Virus record (IMG/VR): IMGVR_UViG_2639763115_000001
Location: 1 to 12,696 of that record
Reading direction: 5' to 3' (one strand)
DNA length: 12,696 nucleotides
Source of the DNA: a virus
Lineage: Duplodnaviria; Heunggongvirae; Uroviricota; Caudoviricetes
Shown here piece after piece: positions 155 through 12,239 of this stretch. The notes beneath the pieces are model-generated. The model made no database searches and had not been told where the DNA came from. It worked only from the letters and a program-made list of their open reading frames with translations. Both the position numbers and the translations under genes were made by a program. Positions within the stretch are counted from its first letter, which is position 1. Every line of letters begins with the position of its first letter.

Positions 155-364
155 ATGGCTTTCATTCCACCAACCATCGACGATGTTAGACATTGCTCTA
201 ACGCTTTATCTGTAGACCCCGCCGAAACCGACGCTGCCCGCGCCATTGCTGAACACTACTCAAAGATATCCAATCAGGAGTACCGCATCACCCAAGACGA
301 CCTGGATGACCTCACTGACACAATCGAATATCTCATGGCCACTAACCAGCCAGACTCACAATAA
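155..364 (+). CDS. Small, highly acidic hypothetical protein (69 aa)
   Basis: ATG at 155 preceded by GTGAGG SD 7 nt upstream. 14 Asp/Glu versus 4 Arg/Lys (net about -10). No family recognised. Confidence 0.5.
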   Translation: MAFIPPTIDDVRHCSNALSVDPAETDAARAIAEHYSKISNQEYRITQDDLDDLTDTIEYLMATNQPDSQ

Positions 365-401
365 ATGCACTAATAAATCTATTATTTTCGTTGGATCCTT
401 C

Positions 402-2581: not shown

Positions 2582-2962
2582 CTACTCCGCAGAACCATAC
2601 AATCTACGTAACGTGGCGGCGACAGAAGATACAGATATCTCGCCAGTCGCAGCGCCTACAGTAAGGTCTGCCAGTTCAGGTGAATCAAATACCTGCACCC
2701 CGTTACGGCGTAGAAATAGCAGCGCACTGTTTAGCGCGGTACGCTTATTGGCATCATTGAATATATGCCCTCTCGCTGTAGCCACCAGGTAGGTGGCGGA
2801 GACTTCGAAAAGGTCGGTGATCTCTTCGTAGGCAACTCTGGCCTGAACTCTCCCGATAATGGCCTCTGCCCTACCCGGATCTGACATTCCCGGCAGGCCG
2901 CCGTAGCGGCTTATATTCGCATCATGAAGCGCAATAAGTTCTTCCGGTGATATATGCCTCAT
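2582..2962 (-). CDS. doc: Doc toxin (Fic-fold kinase, death on curing), 126 aa
   Basis: Translation carries the Fic/Doc active-site motif [12 protein letters not shown] and matches P1 Doc as I remember it over its whole length. Start ATG shares one base with the phd stop (TAATG). Confidence 0.95.
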
Positions 2963-3183
2963 TATCGGTTAACCAGTTCCTTGTTGGTGGAGTCCAGGGT
3001 GTCAAACAGGGATGCAAATTCAGCATCCAGCGCCGCTTTTTTGTAGGCTTCGAAAGTAGCCTTGCTGACAATTACTGCTGGCTCACGGCCTCTGCGGGTG
3101 ATTTCAACCTCTTCCCCGGCTTCAACATTGTTGAGCACTTCAGAAAGGTTGCCGCGCGCGGTACGGAAGTTAATGGATTGCAT
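2962..3183 (-). CDS. phd: Phd antitoxin (prevent host death), 73 aa
   Basis: Translation from the internal ATG ([19 protein letters not shown]…) matches P1 Phd in sequence and length. GAGGTG SD 5 nt upstream. The track ORF begins 2 codons earlier on GTG. Confidence 0.93.
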
Positions 3184-3189
3184 AAACAC

Positions 3190-3255: not shown

Positions 3256-3645
3256 TTAAATCACCGGACAGTCATCAAATTCCCCACTTCGGGCATCATT
3301 GATGACATGAGTGATCACACCAAAAACAGCATTACTACCCGTGTAACCATCGTCATCTACTGGTAACGCCTCTTTCTTCCCGGTGCTTAAATCCTCCAGG
3401 TGCTGGCGCGGATACTTTCGGTATCTCTTTATGCGATATTCACCCTCCATAGCGCAGACAAGCAGCGAACCATCAACCGGAGTAAGCGAGGAATCAACCA
3501 CCAGCAAAGCACCCTGCAATATTCCCTCACGGTGATGGCTGTCTGCCGCCCGCATGAAGTATGTCGCTGATGGATGCCTGATTAGTTGCTGATCAAGAGA
3601 AATTCTGCTTTCAACATAATCCGCCGCAGGAGAAGGGAAGCCCAT
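3256..3645 (-). CDS. humD: UmuD'-like protein (S24 peptidase fold), encoded already in the processed form
   Basis: Starts MGFPSPAADYVE…, the N-terminus UmuD has only after RecA-mediated cleavage at Cys24-Gly25. Conserved HPSATYF and LLVVDSS blocks. GAGGTG SD. No umuC-like polymerase follows. Confidence 0.85.
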   Translation of the reverse strand: MGFPSPAADYVESRISLDQQLIRHPSATYFMRAADSHHREGILQGALLVVDSSLTPVDGSLLVCAMEGEYRIKRYRKYPRQHLEDLSTGKKEALPVDDDGYTGSNAVFGVITHVINDARSGEFDDCPVI

Positions 3646-7929: not shown

Positions 7930-8511
7930 TTACTCACTGGTTGCCCCCTGAATACGCTCAAACTCGATTACCCAAACCCAGGGATTAGCGTTCCAACTTT
8001 CTTCGCCATAAATTGATTCCCATAGGCTACGGAAACCTGGGTAATGCTTATCGCCAATGAGGGTAAATTCTGTTGGTGCGCCCTCAGCCCTTGCATCGCA
8101 TTCGCTGATATCGTTCAACCGCTCAACGCGCACGTTGGTAATTTCCAGCAAAATGCGCGATGCCCAGCGCGGCATGTGAATTGATGGCGTCCACTTTTCT
8201 GATACTGGCTTATTACAAACCTCAACCGGAACCCGGTGCGTTTGTTCTGTCCAGGAGTTACGCACGCTTGCGCGATAAACCAGCGTTGCGACGTCCGTCG
8301 CTTTGCCATGTACCCGGTAGGTTTCACGAACCCAAATACGATCTCCCGGTTGACCATATGGACAATGTTTAGCAAGCAACTCTGCGGCCACTGCCCGTCC
8401 ATAGAATTTTTCTTCAACAATCCTGCGAGTCTGTGTTTTATTCCCGCCAAGAATTGCCCGGACCATCTCATCGTTGAAAATCATGCCGCGCTCTTTCACT
8501 TCGCCTTTCAT
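7930..8511 (-). CDS. Phage protein, tentatively ASCH-like domain (193 aa)
   Basis: ATG at 8511 with AAGGGGGA SD. The MIFNDEMVRAILGGNKTQTRR … PGDRIWVRETY pattern recalls ASCH-type phage proteins; assignment from memory. Confidence 0.65.
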   Translation of the reverse strand: MKGEVKERGMIFNDEMVRAILGGNKTQTRRIVEEKFYGRAVAAELLAKHCPYGQPGDRIWVRETYRVHGKATDVATLVYRASVRNSWTEQTHRVPVEVCNKPVSEKWTPSIHMPRWASRILLEITNVRVERLNDISECDARAEGAPTEFTLIGDKHYPGFRSLWESIYGEESWNANPWVWVIEFERIQGATSE

Positions 8512-8520
8512 GCATCCCCC

Positions 8521-8607
8521 TTACCCATGCGCGACAATGCCGCCAAAAGTGATAGAGAACAGCCAGAAATAGATCGCGGCCATAATGATTTTGAATGCCG
8601 TGTTCAT
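8521..8607 (-). CDS. Small hydrophobic peptide (28 aa, MNTAFKIIMAAIYFWLFSITFGGIVAHG), first ORF of the operon
   Basis: Not in the ORF track. Consensus AGGAG SD exactly 8 nt upstream of the ATG. Ends 10 nt before the next gene. Confidence 0.3.
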   Translation of the reverse strand: MNTAFKIIMAAIYFWLFSITFGGIVAHG

Positions 8608-8634
8608 ATTTTCAGCTCCTGTGATTGATTGGAT

Positions 8635-8666
8635 ACATGCCGCGCCTTGCGGCATGTTTTTATTTT
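8635..8666 (+). terminator. Strong hairpin (9-bp stem ACATGCCGC/GCGGCATGT, 5-nt loop) followed by TTTTTATTTT on the plus strand; terminator-like in plus orientation, or a 5' UTR stem-loop of the minus-strand operon
   Basis: Read directly. On the minus strand the stem is preceded by an A-tract and has no U-tract, so it would not terminate minus-strand transcription. Confidence 0.45.
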
Positions 8667-8676
8667 CACTTTCTCT

Positions 8677-8706
8677 GTTTTAAAAATCAATATTTATTAG
8701 AGCAAT
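8677..8706 (-). promoter_or_regulatory. C1-repressor-operator-like site ATTGCTCTAATAAATAT (8690-8706) overlapping a putative promoter (-35 TTGCTC, 17-nt spacer, -10 TAAAAC at 8677-8682)
   Basis: 16/17 match to the P1 C1 operator consensus ATTGCTCTAATAAATTT as I recall it. Overlaps the HAD gene stop codon by 1 nt; lies upstream of the 28-aa ORF and ASCH-like gene. Confidence 0.55.
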
Positions 8707-9212
8707 TATTGTTGATGGAGAAGCGCGTTTTCATACTCCCTGACCATTAACGTAAGCACGCCGTGCCTCCTGAAAACACGCGCCACTTCAATCTTATCTT
8801 CCAGCGCGAACGCGATTTTACTTAGACCAATTTTCTTAAGGAGATCAATCTTTGCTGGGCCGTCATTTCTGTCATCGGTGGCAGGACGCATAGATAGCAA
8901 AGGCTCAGCCCCGTTTGTTACGTACTTCCGCAGCCAGGCTCGTGTTTTATCCCTTGCGATCTCACAGCGCCCGGTTACAAACCAGACCGTGTAAACGTTA
9001 AATAACTGGCGCACAATATCAATAACTGGAGTTATGGGAGTATCAGTGTCACAGGCGAGATTAAACTCGTTCCAGTCCTTTGTTAATGCACCTTTACCTG
9101 GTGGCGGAAGCAAATGCAGTCTGTCTTCAGTTGCCTCTGATATTGTTCCATCAATATCAACTATGACGATATACGGACGTTCCTGGTGTGCGTGTTTATT
9201 GAAAATACTCAA
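8706..9212 (-). CDS. HAD-superfamily phosphatase/nucleotidase-like protein (168 aa)
   Basis: Motif I VIVDIDGT near the N-terminus, later T (WFVTGR) and K/DD-like positions. Only in-frame start is TTG at 9212, preceded by strong GAGGAGGG SD. Confidence 0.65.
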   Translation of the reverse strand: MSIFNKHAHQERPYIVIVDIDGTISEATEDRLHLLPPPGKGALTKDWNEFNLACDTDTPITPVIDIVRQLFNVYTVWFVTGRCEIARDKTRAWLRKYVTNGAEPLLSMRPATDDRNDGPAKIDLLKKIGLSKIAFALEDKIEVARVFRRHGVLTLMVREYENALLHQQ

Positions 9213-9230
9213 ATGCCCTCCTCATTGGAC

Positions 9231-9264
9231 GAAAAAAATGCTGGTGGGCGCACTCCACCAGCAT
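9231..9264 (-). terminator. Rho-independent terminator (10-bp stem ATGCTGGTGG/CCACCAGCAT, 7-nt loop, then T7 on the minus strand)
   Basis: Read directly. Lies between the 420-aa gene stop (9285) and the HAD gene start (9212), so it may act as an attenuator. Confidence 0.65.
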
Positions 9265-9284
9265 TAAAAGTGACACTGTAACTG

Positions 9285-10547
9285 TCAGCGAACGTAAATA
9301 GTGCCGCCGTTCTCTTTTTCCCATGCATCGCTACGTGCATAGCAAACATCGAGAAGTCTTCTTGCCGCTGTTTCCTCTAAACCCAATTCGACAACCAACT
9401 GCTCATGACGGCGGGTAACCACATCAAACAGGGTATGCAGCCCTTTAGCTGCCAGATCATCAATAAATTCCGGTTCGAACGGCAGCTCTGCATCTGCCAA
9501 CATAACCTCTTGCGCCCACTCGACACGGCGGACCAGTTCCGGGCGGCGGCTTTCCATCTCTTTACAGATCAATTCATGGAAGAACTCTACCCAACCTTCC
9601 GGCTGGAACTCGCGGAAAATGGCCAGCGGCTGGAAGTTTGGCATCAACCATTCGTTGATTCGGATATCAATGGCATAGCCCATGTCGCAGCAGAACTGAT
9701 AAGCAAAGTCCAGCTTAGAAACGATATAAGGACGCTCGTTATTGAACTCTTTAGGCGATGAGATCCCATAAGCCAGGAGGCGCGGGAAGAAGGAGATTTG
9801 CCCTAACGTCGGATGAAGTTTGCTTGCAGGGAAACGGCGCTCAGTAATGCCATACATTTCCTTCTTGAGCGTCGCAAATTTGGCATTCTCATTAACCAGC
9901 GCGGTAACCTCTGCTTTTTTATTAGCAAATGCCACGCGCGCTTCGCTTGCATCTTTAATAGTTTTTTTGAGCTGTTGGTTAAGATCGGCGACCTGCTTAC
10001 GCAGTTCCTGTCGCTCGCTTTTAGCTTTGTTATAGCGTTTCTCAAGGTTAAAAGGATCAAGTTTCATGATCTCTTTATATTGAGATTTTAGCGTTGAAAT
10101 CTGTGAGTTCCGCAGTTCAACCATCGCGGTCATTTCATTGAGTTTTGTTTCCAGCTCAATGCTTATACGTTCGGCATTATCAGCACGCTGGTTGGCGTCA
10201 TGCGTCGCATCGTCGATCGCGTCCTGTTGCTGGCGTTTCAAATGTTCAATTTGTAGCTGAAGCTCTTCAATTTCTTTACCCTTCAGACCGAGATCCAACT
10301 GCATATTTTCAGCTGCATCTACCAGGGAGTTATGGCTATCAGCTTCTGCGTTATAAACATCAATAAGCTGTGCGTGAAGCATCTCCGCTGACTGAACCGC
10401 ATTATCAAAAAAACGCGCTGTGAGGTCATCACAACTAACGCGGCGTTGCGCGGCCCGGATGTTCTGGATAATGGCTGGGATACCGGCATTCAGGACGTCA
10501 GGGATAGATACATTTTCGATTGATTGGTTTTGTGCTGAAGTGCTCAT
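9285..10547 (-). CDS. Hypothetical protein (420 aa): N-terminal ~230-aa coiled-coil, uncharacterised C-terminal domain
   Basis: Long ORF with ATG start. Heptad-like, charge-rich sequence (…EELQLQIEHLKRQQQDAIDDA…) from the translation. Confidence 0.7.
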   Translation of the reverse strand: MSTSAQNQSIENVSIPDVLNAGIPAIIQNIRAAQRRVSCDDLTARFFDNAVQSAEMLHAQLIDVYNAEADSHNSLVDAAENMQLDLGLKGKEIEELQLQIEHLKRQQQDAIDDATHDANQRADNAERISIELETKLNEMTAMVELRNSQISTLKSQYKEIMKLDPFNLEKRYNKAKSERQELRKQVADLNQQLKKTIKDASEARVAFANKKAEVTALVNENAKFATLKKEMYGITERRFPASKLHPTLGQISFFPRLLAYGISSPKEFNNERPYIVSKLDFAYQFCCDMGYAIDIRINEWLMPNFQPLAIFREFQPEGWVEFFHELICKEMESRRPELVRRVEWAQEVMLADAELPFEPEFIDDLAAKGLHTLFDVVTRRHEQLVVELGLEETAARRLLDVCYARSDAWEKENGGTIYVR

Positions 10548-10548
10548 T

Positions 10549-10767
10549 TCAAAGTTCCGTATTAGCTTGTGCTTCGGTCATTTTTCCTAAGTATGAAGGT
10601 GGAAGGACTACGCAATTTGTATCCAGTCCCTCACCTATGGCAGCCTGTAAAATTCTGGCTAAGGTGAGTCTCTTGTTGCGATACCTGGTGATTACATGCC
10701 TGATACCGCCGGTCGGCGTAACAAAGGCGATCAGCCAGTAGTGATATTTCCGTCGGAATGGCCACAT
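10549..10767 (-). CDS. Hypothetical small protein (72 aa), first gene after the operator/promoter
   Basis: ATG at 10767 with AAGGTG SD 6 nt upstream. Stop is 1 nt before the ATG of the 420-aa gene. Confidence 0.45.
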   Translation of the reverse strand: MWPFRRKYHYWLIAFVTPTGGIRHVITRYRNKRLTLARILQAAIGEGLDTNCVVLPPSYLGKMTEAQANTEL

Positions 10768-10781
10768 AGCGCACCTTGTAG

Positions 10782-10847
10782 ATTGCTCTAATAAAAAACG
10801 TGATGAGTGTACATCACGTTTTAAAAATATGAAATTATTAGAGCAAT
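10782..10847. promoter_or_regulatory. Pair of inverted C1-operator-like sites (10782-10798, plus orientation, 14/17; 10831-10847, minus orientation, 15/17) flanking an 11-bp-stem hairpin (10795-10822) that is a terminator for the upstream gene; putative promoter -35 TTGCTC / -10 TAAAAC on the minus strand
   Basis: Read directly. Outer 12-bp arms ATTGCTCTAATA/TATTAGAGCAAT are perfect inverted repeats. Inner stem AAAACGTGATG/CATCACGTTTT is followed by T6 on the minus strand. Confidence 0.55.
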
Positions 10848-10848
10848 A

Positions 10849-11550
10849 TTATTCTGATTCTCGCTCAAAAAATGAGCTGATAAGGGGAAGCCAATCCTCT
10901 GACACTTCGCGAGGTCGCGGTTTGCCGTGGAAAAAGATTATTCGGCAGTCTTTTGGTAATGCCCCATTCCCCCTGGAGTAACGCGCGCTCGCATATTTTG
11001 AACCAGGTTCCACAACATCGGCCTTGTAACTTACAAACCATCCTGGATACAGATCCTGAAATGCTGGTGTATCATCGCCCATAACCTTTCGTAAGAACCC
11101 CTGGTCACCCCAGCACTCAGTAGTGACACAACGAGAAATCCAACCTTCCGGATCTTGCCAGAATGAACTCCAGATATGCGCTTTTACACTATTTGGTATC
11201 CACAGGGCACCGCTACCACGATATTGTGGATGGTAAAAATCCCTAAGCATGGTGAAGCTGGTTGGTGGATTCTCAAGGATTGGGCGTATATCACCGGCAA
11301 TAACTGTGTCCAAATCCAGATAGAACAGATCATCTGTTATATCCGGTCGGAACAACTCGATTTTCGTCCACCAGCCACGGCACTTTTGCCACTGGTTGAT
11401 CAATGGGACAACTTTGACGCCAGGTACATGTAAACGCTTCAGGTCTGTCAGGCAAATAATTTCATAGCCTTTTGGCAGTTGATTAACCAGCCACTGCACA
11501 TCGGAAGCGTTATAGTCACCACCAGAGCGAAGAACTAAAGCAATCTTCAT
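10849..11550 (-). CDS. Hypothetical protein (233 aa), possibly a GT-A-type glycosyltransferase (DxD-like FYLDLDTV motif)
   Basis: ATG overlaps the ppp stop (ATGA). The functional guess rests only on the DxD-like motif and N-terminal beta-alpha start and is weak. Confidence 0.6.
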
Positions 11551-12239
11551 GCTGCACCATCACCTTTCACTTTCATCAATGTCAGGTTTCCGCAAAATAC
11601 GGCACCAGTGTCGATATAATGCTGATTCCAGAATGTCTTCGGGCTTTTCACCGGAGTGTGACCAAAGATAAAACGATCTGCGCCCGAAATTTCGCCACCA
11701 ATATCATCCATCGAATCACTGATACGCTCGCGCGCCCAGACAACGTTGAAAAGCGGCACCTCCTTACCGAATTGATATTCATTATCCGGATAGTCGGCAT
11801 GGGCTATAACGATAGTTTCTTGCCCGGTGTTCAACTCAATGATATAGGGCAGTCGTCTTACCAACTCCACCAGCGCCCTGGCTAATATTTCCTGATCAGC
11901 GTCCAGCATGAAGAACCATTGACCGCCATTCATTAGCCAATTATTCACGTTGCCATCAGGACTTAACGCATCAATCATCAGCTGCTCATGGTTGCCCATA
12001 ACCGCTCTGAACCATGGCATCTGCAATAGCTCCAAGCATTTAACATTTTCGGTGCCGCGATCGATAAGGTCGCCGACCGATATCAGTAAATCCTGCGCAG
12101 GGTCAAAATCCACACGATGGAGTTCGGACATCAGTCTGGTGTAGCAACCATGCAGATCACCAACAACCCAGATATTCCTGTATTTGGTACCGTCGATACG
12201 GTGATAAATTGTTGGTGCCATCATGTATTCTTCAGCCAT
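11547..12239 (-). CDS. ppp: Ser/Thr protein phosphatase, lambda-PPase-like metallophosphatase
   Basis: GDLHG, GDLIDRG, GNHE and later His motifs; near-collinear with lambda PPase from the IDG(T/S)[15 protein letters not shown] block onward. Start could be 12239, 12224 or 12221; the last overlaps the upstream stop as TGATG. Confidence 0.9.

Follow-up and report, generated by a model that had tools for sequence, protein, structure and literature searches.

The three minus-strand genes considered here occupy positions 8706-10767 of a 12,696-nucleotide (nt) stretch of viral DNA (IMG/VR record IMGVR_UViG_2639763115_000001; this whole stretch is referred to as the window), and they are the known pmgR-pmgS-pap cluster of a P1/P7-type (Punavirus) plasmid prophage, under the control of the repressor C1. 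The reading that we favor, and to which, taken as a whole, we would assign a probability of roughly 0.6, is that pmgR and pmgS form a C1-controlled unit (pmgRS) in this P1/P7 cluster, that PmgS has an early, DNA-associated role, that PmgR restrains PmgS, and that pap encodes a phosphatase expressed by leak-through from the unit upstream. As the outcome of a genome scan, the region carries little weight, since the P1/P7 locus has long been annotated and knock-outs of all three genes exist. What is gained is a fuller description of the domains of PmgS, evidence that a database label is probably misleading, a testable idea about the relation of PmgR to PmgS, and a distinction between the conserved pair, pmgR-pmgS, and an optional passenger, pap.

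Identity of the locus and its control

When positions 8500-11000 of the window were compared by megablast with deposited phage genomes, 19 records covered the query in full, at 97.3-99.3% identity; the top matches were Salmonella phage SJ46 and phage P7 (99.3% each), and P1 stood at 98.1%. The list of open reading frames (ORFs) in the window also includes phd/doc, humD, a lambda-type protein phosphatase and other marks of a plasmid prophage of P1 type. The curated P1 record (AF234172) gives the three minus-strand ORFs as pmgR (72 amino acids, aa), pmgS (420 aa) and pap (168 aa), whilst the P7 record (AF503408) names the same cluster shtA, shtB and pap. According to the annotation tables, the curated P1 and P7 features occupy positions equivalent to those in the window. 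The cluster agrees with the annotations of P1 (Lobocka et al. 2004) and P7 in gene lengths, spacing, operators, terminator and TTG start, with no difference of substance, and PmgS from the window is 100% identical to the SJ46 protein and 99.5% identical to those of P1 and P7. It is only past Op88, a C1 operator which begins on the final base of the stop codon of pap and governs the operon beyond it, that the window carries the P7/SJ46 gene set (upf86.8 onwards) and not the pmgT-V genes of P1.

Annotation of the operators and gene products of this locus in P1 and P7 goes back some twenty years. An earlier reading of the window made from its letters (the original prediction) had stated that the genes could not be assigned to any described system, which does not survive the match to an annotated cluster at 98-99% identity. 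Its geometry was sound: the three minus-strand genes do lie behind an operator pair, at the right coordinates, the operators being the C1 sites Op86a and Op86b, and the 1-nt gap between the 72-aa and 420-aa genes is base 10548, between TGA and ATG. The further proposal that all three genes form a single operator-controlled operon agrees with the gene order and with the upstream operators, but the P1 curators put only pmgR and pmgS under the control of Op86a/b.

The C1 operator consensus has four matches in the window, where 0.10 would be expected (coordinates of all features are given in Table 1). Op86a and Op86b share a 13-nt perfect inverted repeat, and Op86a overlaps the -35 element of PpmgR, a predicted sigma-70 promoter placed here by conversion of its annotated P1 coordinates (locus coordinate + 5999 = window coordinate). 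The promoter is weak by consensus and was missed in a simple promoter scan. A weaker operator-like site, with three mismatches to the C1 consensus, is found at 364-380 (+).

Most virion genes are served by the Lpa-dependent late class of promoters. We found no match to the Lpa late-promoter box AAGTNACTT in or near positions 8700-10900; the box was defined as the 9-bp -22 box AAGTTACTT taken from the annotated LPhot promoter. Given C1 operators over a sigma-70 promoter and the lack of an Lpa box nearby, the pmgRS unit belongs to the C1-controlled class and not to the Lpa-dependent late class. Derepression would yield a bicistronic mRNA in which pmgR and pmgS are translationally coupled. Nested between the two C1 operators, and overlapping the predicted -10 element of PpmgR, there is a hairpin followed by a T run, which probably terminates transcription of the upstream pmgN..pmgQ genes. 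If it does end that unit, then about 65 bp would serve both for the close of one transcript and for the repressor-controlled start of the following one.

PmgS, its relatives and its partner PmgR

The AlphaFold model of full-length PmgS consists of two very long helices followed by a compact C-terminal half (predicted local distance difference test, pLDDT, 74). Residues 226-420, modeled with 25 diverse homologues, reach a pLDDT of 90.9 and a predicted template modeling score of 0.86. The protein is probably dimeric. PmgS from the window has no significant match in Pfam, NCBIfam or PADLOC, and the weak hits are confined to residues 55-235 and to assorted coiled-coil proteins. An SMC, Rad50 or partition protein was considered and rejected; NCBIfam scores of 14-19 bits, against cutoffs of 300-1000, come from the coiled coil only, and PmgS has no P-loop.

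The C-terminal half, described in the original prediction as an unknown domain, resolves into two parts, of which only one has relatives. The alpha/beta domain at residues 238-347 is more strongly conserved than any other region of the family, and no relative of it was found in the PDB, among predicted viral structures or in Pfam. Support for an (HhH)2 domain, of the helix-hairpin-helix kind seen in DNA repair, at residues 348-413 came from the PmgS family profile, which matches the C-terminal domain of RNA polymerase alpha (alpha-CTD; PDB 1doq, E = 2.5e-7) and the N-terminal domain (NTD) of RAD51 (1b22, E = 5.9e-7) when it is compared with the PDB. PF03118 is matched by 12 of 32 PmgS homologues and PF14520 by 11 of the 32, and one homologue, P0029, exceeds the HhH Pfam cutoff (32 bits vs 27). 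In the predicted model, the domain adopts a five-helix fold that can be superposed on known (HhH)2 members, with the acidic-repeat (AR) domains of NusA among the structural matches. PmgS differs from the known (HhH)2 proteins (alpha-CTD, RAD51/RadA NTD, NusA acidic repeats) in that the domain is joined to a coiled coil of ~190 residues and to the relative-less alpha/beta domain. In addition, the second hairpin of the P1/P7 protein is degenerate and lacks the GIG signature: distant homologues read KGIGxKTA, where P1/P7 PmgS reads ELGLEETA (GLE for GIG). Given this spelling, DNA binding by P1/P7 PmgS may be weakened.

Two minor observations concern PmgS homologues. Distant members of the family often terminate in ...AA (QTAA, EKAA, REAA, KVAA, KNAA, QEAA; examples are P0051, P0054, P0064, P0067, P0075, P0086, P0087, P0089 and P0103), which recalls ssrA-like degradation tags, whereas P1/P7 PmgS ends in IYVR. 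Three homologues (P0002, P0005 and P0016, of 480, 531 and 463 aa) are fused to a cytosine methyltransferase or a metallophosphoesterase; each is a single sequence from a single contig, and these fusions are probably gene-calling or assembly chimeras.

The family extends far beyond P1. A sequence search with PmgS returned 29 close and medium relatives, and a profile search of 1.84 billion representative proteins returned 121 clusters at 50% identity, mostly of 370-470 aa and matched end to end. A scan of viral contigs with a nine-sequence PmgS alignment found only near-identical P1/P7 copies, and a scan with an alignment of one PmgS clade gave no matches. We looked at the genomic context of 43 PmgS-homologue loci. 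In unrelated, temperate phages of 48-60 kb that lack PmgR, the PmgS homologues sit in early DNA-metabolism modules, none of them structural, and in three separate lineages RecT is encoded no more than three genes upstream. Aeromonas phage phiARM81mr and about 20 related contigs encode a PDDEXK exonuclease (DUF3799), RecT, a coiled-coil protein, the PmgS-like protein, a Dam or MT-A70 methylase and RdgC; a separate clade of 48-kb phages has exonuclease, RecT and PmgS-like; and Pseudomonas phage 15b/15G has RecT, Sipho_Gp157 and PmgS-like. In two Vibrio phages, a DNA methylase directly follows the PmgS-like gene, one of them with a YfdQ-type DUF2303 protein upstream, another contig has a C5 methylase two genes upstream, and a P1-like contig encodes SSB three genes downstream of its PmgS homologue. 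Thus, PmgS homologues outside the P1 group occur among exactly the genes that make up RecT/exonuclease modules (with Sipho_Gp157, RdgC-like proteins and orphan Dam/MT-A70 methylases), although P1 and P7 themselves have no RecT or exonuclease beside pmgS.

In the Aeromonas-type loci, the protein encoded between RecT and PmgS-like is annotated as an 'integrase' (362-392 aa; phiARM81mr p15, L088 4331-5434 and 20 homologues). It has no integrase domain and no significant Pfam match, and it is a glutamine/arginine/alanine-rich coiled coil; by its sequence, the annotation is probably wrong.

As judged with a PmgR profile, 13 of the 43 loci have a PmgR homologue immediately before their PmgS homologue; all of these come from P1-like phages or large contigs (D6, JK004 and metagenomic contigs of 55-99 kb), and the pairing persists down to about 20-27% PmgS identity. 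Presence of PmgR goes together with an N-terminal KRxxGDD[LV] motif in PmgS: both are present at 13 loci and both are absent from 29, whilst at a single locus (L114) the motif is present and no PmgR was detected. This pattern suggests that the motif is the contact site for PmgR. The PmgR homologue of D6 (L089 5603-5902) is longer than the others, at about 99 aa, and has a hydrophobic C-terminal extension, VMRLLSLLQWAIVPVFIAYLIY, that is absent from other PmgR proteins and may be a membrane anchor.

The third gene behaves differently. Among close relatives, pap follows pmgS in 79 of 87, and it also does so in Cronobacter phage JK004. In a relative of 53% identity, an additional gene stands between pmgS and pap, and pap is missing from a Salmonella relative of 69% identity, from D6, from a contig of 27% identity and from all of the more distant loci examined. 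Because the link to pap breaks outside the close relatives whilst that between PmgR and PmgS persists, the conserved unit would appear to be the pmgR-pmgS pair and not the trio. The original prediction had treated the three genes as one unit, which it would have given up if they did not co-occur outside the lineage and the coiled-coil protein matched a known structural or partition protein; the trio does indeed not co-occur in the distant relatives examined, but PmgS matches no protein of either kind.

Published genetics bear directly on the pair. Gonzales et al. deleted 29 P1 genes in frame, with pmgR, pmgS and pap among their targets, and found only five to be essential, of which pmgR was one (PMC9024508). 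The pmgR deletion, which can be complemented in trans, leads to tails and incomplete heads, a phenotype close to that of the packaging mutant pacA, and PmgR, which has no recognizable homologue whose function is known, was not detected among the virion proteins (PMC9024508). We found no match to PmgR in Pfam, NCBIfam or PADLOC. Deletion of pmgS in frame causes no plaquing defect (PMC9024508), and Piya et al. found pmgS to be non-essential by both deletion and CRISPR interference (CRISPRi; PMC10695390). Neither the main text nor the tables of the virion-proteome paper contain the name PmgS, so that the protein is not among the virion proteins reported there (PMC9024508). For pmgR, the second study gives conflicting answers: the gene is essential by deletion and non-essential by dCas12a knockdown (efficiency of plating 0.94), and the authors list it as 'missed' (PMC10695390). 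The dCas12a roadblock was shown to be polar on downstream genes, and the authors assume an ineffective roadblock for genes 25 and 26 (PMC10695390). The CRISPRi-ART study did not include P1, and a search of the literature on shtA/shtB and 'PmgS-like' found nothing relevant.

The deletion and knockdown results on pmgR would agree if pmgR were needed only when pmgS is expressed. Because loss of pmgR is lethal, loss of pmgS is harmless, and a polar block of both is harmless too, we propose a model of restraint. In this model, PmgR, as a partner confined to the P1 lineage, would dock on the N-terminal KRxxGDDL region of PmgS and keep PmgS in check; without PmgR, unrestrained PmgS would block head filling, and heads would stay unfilled and unjoined. 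PmgS itself would act early, engaging by way of its C-terminal half either phage DNA or a partner bound to DNA, during recombination-dependent replication, concatemer handling or the preparation of the packaging substrate, and would be neither a virion nor a scaffold protein. Such an early, DNA-associated role fits better than one in morphogenesis, since there is no late promoter, PmgS is absent from the virion-proteome paper, and the gene is dispensable for plaques. If true, antagonism between the two proteins explains why a polar knockdown is harmless when a clean deletion of pmgR is lethal, and it offers a testable explanation for the published contradiction on the essentiality of pmgR. A bolder form of the model can be put forward only tentatively, as something that could well prove wrong. 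It holds that PmgS founds a widespread, mislabeled family of early phage proteins (coiled coil, novel alpha/beta domain and (HhH)2 domain) that work with RecT and methylation modules, that PmgR is an antagonist acquired to act at KRxxGDDL, and that pmgR is essential only because free PmgS blocks packaging or head filling.

pap and the terminator that precedes it

Pap is best read as a stand-alone polynucleotide 3'-phosphatase, which would be made at a low level through the terminator and from its TTG start. It scores 46.3 bits against PF25109 (HAD_PNKP; Pfam cutoff 27.6), and it matches phrog_415 (polynucleotide kinase) at 2e-56 and Pnkp1 in the PDB (4xrp) at E = 5.5e-4. Its catalytic motif, DIDGT, comprises residues 19-23 (nt 9144-9158; VDIDGT, 18-23) and is kept in a homologue of 58% identity. 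The likeness to the phosphatase domain of T4-type Pnkp and Pnkp1 consists of this HAD signature (DxDGT) and the alignment to the phosphatase region of Pnkp1. There is no kinase domain: the matches to phrog_505 (profile positions 156-292 of 295) and to Pnkp1 are confined to the phosphatase part of each, and Pap differs from the Pnkp1-Rnl-Hen1 RNA repair system further in that no ligase or Hen1 partner is encoded nearby. The historical name, 'acid phosphatase', derives from 25% identity to a Streptomyces protein (P1 annotation). Pap would heal nucleic-acid ends as a dispensable add-on of close P1 relatives, outside the conserved pair; its in-frame deletion causes no plaquing defect (PMC9024508), and the gene is non-essential by deletion and CRISPRi (PMC10695390). 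The original prediction was right that TTG, behind a strong Shine-Dalgarno sequence (GAGGAGGG), is the only start of the gene: no in-frame ATG or GTG precedes the DIDGT motif, and the TTG is kept in all variants, including JK004.

The strong minus-strand terminator predicted between the coiled-coil and HAD genes is also present, within a few bases of the 9231-9264 originally given. The hairpin is kept in all 21 sequence variants found among about 80 near-identical viral-contig loci, and nearly all of the changes in the pmgS-pap intergenic region fall in the loop or off the stem. JK004, whose PmgS is 69.5% identical, has a differently spelled but fully paired stem with compensatory changes, followed by T8. 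A canonical terminator 3' of the pmgS homologue occurs in four other P1-like lineages (JK004, L119, L120 and L122). The start codon of pap follows the terminator stem at a distance of about 25 nt; no promoter was found between pmgS and pap by consensus scan, and the P1 curators list none for pap either. With no promoter in this gap, transcription of pap must pass the terminator, much as had been predicted. Most transcripts would stop there, and a minority would read through to give a low level of Pap.

The original prediction had gone further and called this hairpin an attenuator, an idea that we rejected. Folding in a context of 196 nt keeps the terminator and gives no competing, antiterminator pairing, no leader peptide was seen, and Rfam at gathering thresholds finds no structured RNA family in the entire window. 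The whole 86-nt terminator segment folds only slightly better than shuffled sequences (z = -2.2). In addition, the gap between the pmgS stop codon and the stem is 19 nt, so that a ribosome stopping at the codon would not be expected to reach the stem. The simplest reading is that the hairpin is the ordinary end of the pmgRS unit, with leak-through to the downstream gene, because a terminator also follows pmgS in the four lineages named above; protein-mediated antitermination may nevertheless operate here.

Both arms of the terminator contain the Chi octamer GCTGGTGG, one copy per strand. P1 is Chi-rich, and the window has 10 Chi octamers where 0.28 would be expected, nine of the ten on the minus strand; the others are at 1861, 2118, 2286, 3498, 6644, 7042, 11368 and 11867.

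Alternative readings and other features of the window

Several points weigh against the reading that we favor. The link between the KRxxGDD[LV] motif and PmgR may reflect shared ancestry rather than contact. PmgS from the window, with its degenerate second hairpin, falls below every HhH Pfam threshold and may not itself bind DNA; by analogy, HhH domains such as those of the RAD51 NTD and NusA AR can bind proteins instead. Genomic neighborhood is guilt by association, and the 20 Aeromonas-type loci are mutually related. As for the genetics, the harmless CRISPRi result may simply reflect an ineffective roadblock, PmgR might truly act in head completion, which is what its discoverers propose, and the P7 annotators named shtA and shtB for sheath functions. 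Finally, pap may have a cryptic promoter that escapes recognition by sequence.

The conventional annotation takes the genes to be morphogenesis genes, with repressor control incidental. It agrees with the tails and incomplete heads of the pmgR deletion (PMC9024508), with the P7 names (sheath structure and contraction), with the PHROGs family label 'PmgS-like head morphogenesis', with the annotation of the D6 homologue as a putative prohead scaffolding protein, and with the upstream pmgN-pmgQ genes, which are of 'putative morphogenetic function' in P1 and have head-morphogenesis (hdm) names in P7. We nevertheless consider it unlikely: PmgS can be deleted without a plaquing defect and goes unmentioned in the virion-proteome paper (text and tables), there is no Lpa late promoter, the Phage_scaffold Pfam match to PmgS is noise (E = 0.77), the PmgR-less phages of 48-60 kb hold their PmgS homologues in RecT/exonuclease/methylase modules and not in structural ones, and the C-terminus is an (HhH)2 domain. 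Moreover, the pmgR phenotype is near that of pacA, so that a structural role is not required to account for it. It is less probable still that PmgS is a transcription or host-takeover factor, an alpha-CTD mimic competing for UP elements, activators or NusA. That the alpha-CTD structure 1doq is the top match of the family profile, that PF03118 is found in 12 of 32 homologues, that NusA AR domains are among the structural matches and that expression would be early and repressor-controlled are all in keeping with this idea; however, RAD51/RadA N-terminal domains match equally well, and the neighbors of PmgS are recombination and DNA-modification genes, not regulators.

The labels themselves have a common source. 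Both 'PmgS-like head morphogenesis' (phrog_1660) and 'putative prohead scaffolding protein' (D6 gp118) derive from the 'putative morphogenetic function' of the P1 annotation, and, through RefSeq re-annotation, the same labels are now attached to Vibrio and Aeromonas phage proteins located in recombination modules. They probably send annotators in the wrong direction.

Two further alternatives involve pap. One, which concerns the hairpin at 9237-9265, would make it mainly a pair of Chi sites (a recombination/RecBCD signal) with termination secondary, and pap co-expressed with pmgRS at similar levels. The Chi octamers in both arms and their excess in the window agree with it, but the hairpin and T8 found at this place in JK004 contain no Chi octamer (GCTGATGG), unrelated terminators follow pmgS in other P1-like lineages, and a T7 right after the stem is needed by a terminator and not by Chi, all of which leaves it very improbable. 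The other is the resemblance to a sensor-effector arrangement suggested by the original prediction: a three-gene module for defense or for replication/plasmid control, in which the coiled-coil protein is the sensor, the HAD protein is the effector and a regulated attenuator sets the dose. P1-type prophages do carry accessory modules, phd/doc lies in the same window, and PADLOC gives weak hits of PmgS to LmuB and JetC (E = 1e-4 to 4e-2; best 1.4e-4, 18 bits). These hits cover the coiled coil only, and the same region also matches SMC, Rad50, keratin and myosin-type models. What PmgS shares with Lamassu LmuB, Wadjet JetC and SMC/Rad50 proteins is a long coiled coil, with weak profile hits at residues 55-230; it has no ATPase head, Walker motifs or partner genes, and its 18 bits compare with SMC cutoffs of 567-729. 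Neither PmgR nor Pap has any PADLOC match, pap is unlinked to pmgS outside the close relatives, the deletions change neither antirestriction nor plaquing (PMC9024508), no antiterminator structure was found, and C1 represses the operon in the lysogen, which is the wrong state for a prophage defense gene. We therefore rejected a known defense system and regard the module as scarcely credible.

Table 1. Positions in the window of the features discussed, with the basis for each
Feature	Position	Strand	Details and basis
pmgR / shtA, 72 aa	10549..10767	-	ORF list; P1/P7 annotation; phrog_3177
pmgS / shtB, 420 aa	9285..10547	-	ORF list; P1/P7 annotation
PmgS residues 35-42, RRVSCDDL, N-terminal KRxxGDD[LV] motif	10422..10445	-	Alignments
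PmgS residues 41-232, predicted coiled coil	9852..10427	-	AlphaFold helices 41-160 and 166-232
PmgS residues 238-347, conserved alpha/beta domain	9507..9836	-	Motifs RINEWLxP and HPxLxxRxxWA
PmgS residues 348-413, (HhH)2 domain (RNA polymerase alpha-CTD / RAD51 NTD type)	9309..9506	-	
pap, 168 aa, stand-alone HAD phosphatase, PNKP type	8706..9212	-	PF25109; phrog_415; PDB 4xrp
pap Shine-Dalgarno sequence and TTG start	9210..9223	-	GAGGAGGG at 9216-9223; TTG at 9210-9212
Intrinsic terminator between pmgS and pap	9230..9265	-	11-bp perfect, G+C-rich stem, 7-nt loop, T7; stem 9237-9265, AATGCTGGTGG + CCACCAGCATT
Op86a (OpmgRa / Op(sht[a]))	10831..10847	-	ATTGCTCTAATAATTTC; 2 mismatches to C1 consensus; protein_bind feature in P1 and P7
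Op86b	10782..10798	+	Inverted relative to Op86a; annotated in P1 and P7
PpmgR, predicted sigma-70 promoter	10818..10846	-	TTGCTC, 17-nt spacer, TAAAAC; P1 annotation
Hairpin and T run between Op86a and Op86b	10795..10822	-	AAAACGTGATG-tacact-CATCACGTTTT; 11 nt, 100% complementary
Op88 (OpmgT / Op(hea))	8690..8706	-	ATTGCTCTAATAAATAT; 1 mismatch to C1 consensus; annotated in P1 and P7

The other P7-type genes of the window (2582-3189, 3256-3645, 7930-8511 and 10849-12239) are doc, phd, humD, upf86.8, pmgQ/hdmD and ppp. Doc and Phd are a toxin-antitoxin pair, HumD is UmuD-like, and Ppp is a lambda-type Ser/Thr phosphatase; upf86.8 gives a weak hint of an ASCH domain (E = 0.16), and pmgQ/hdmD is labeled as a glycosyltransferase in PHROGs.

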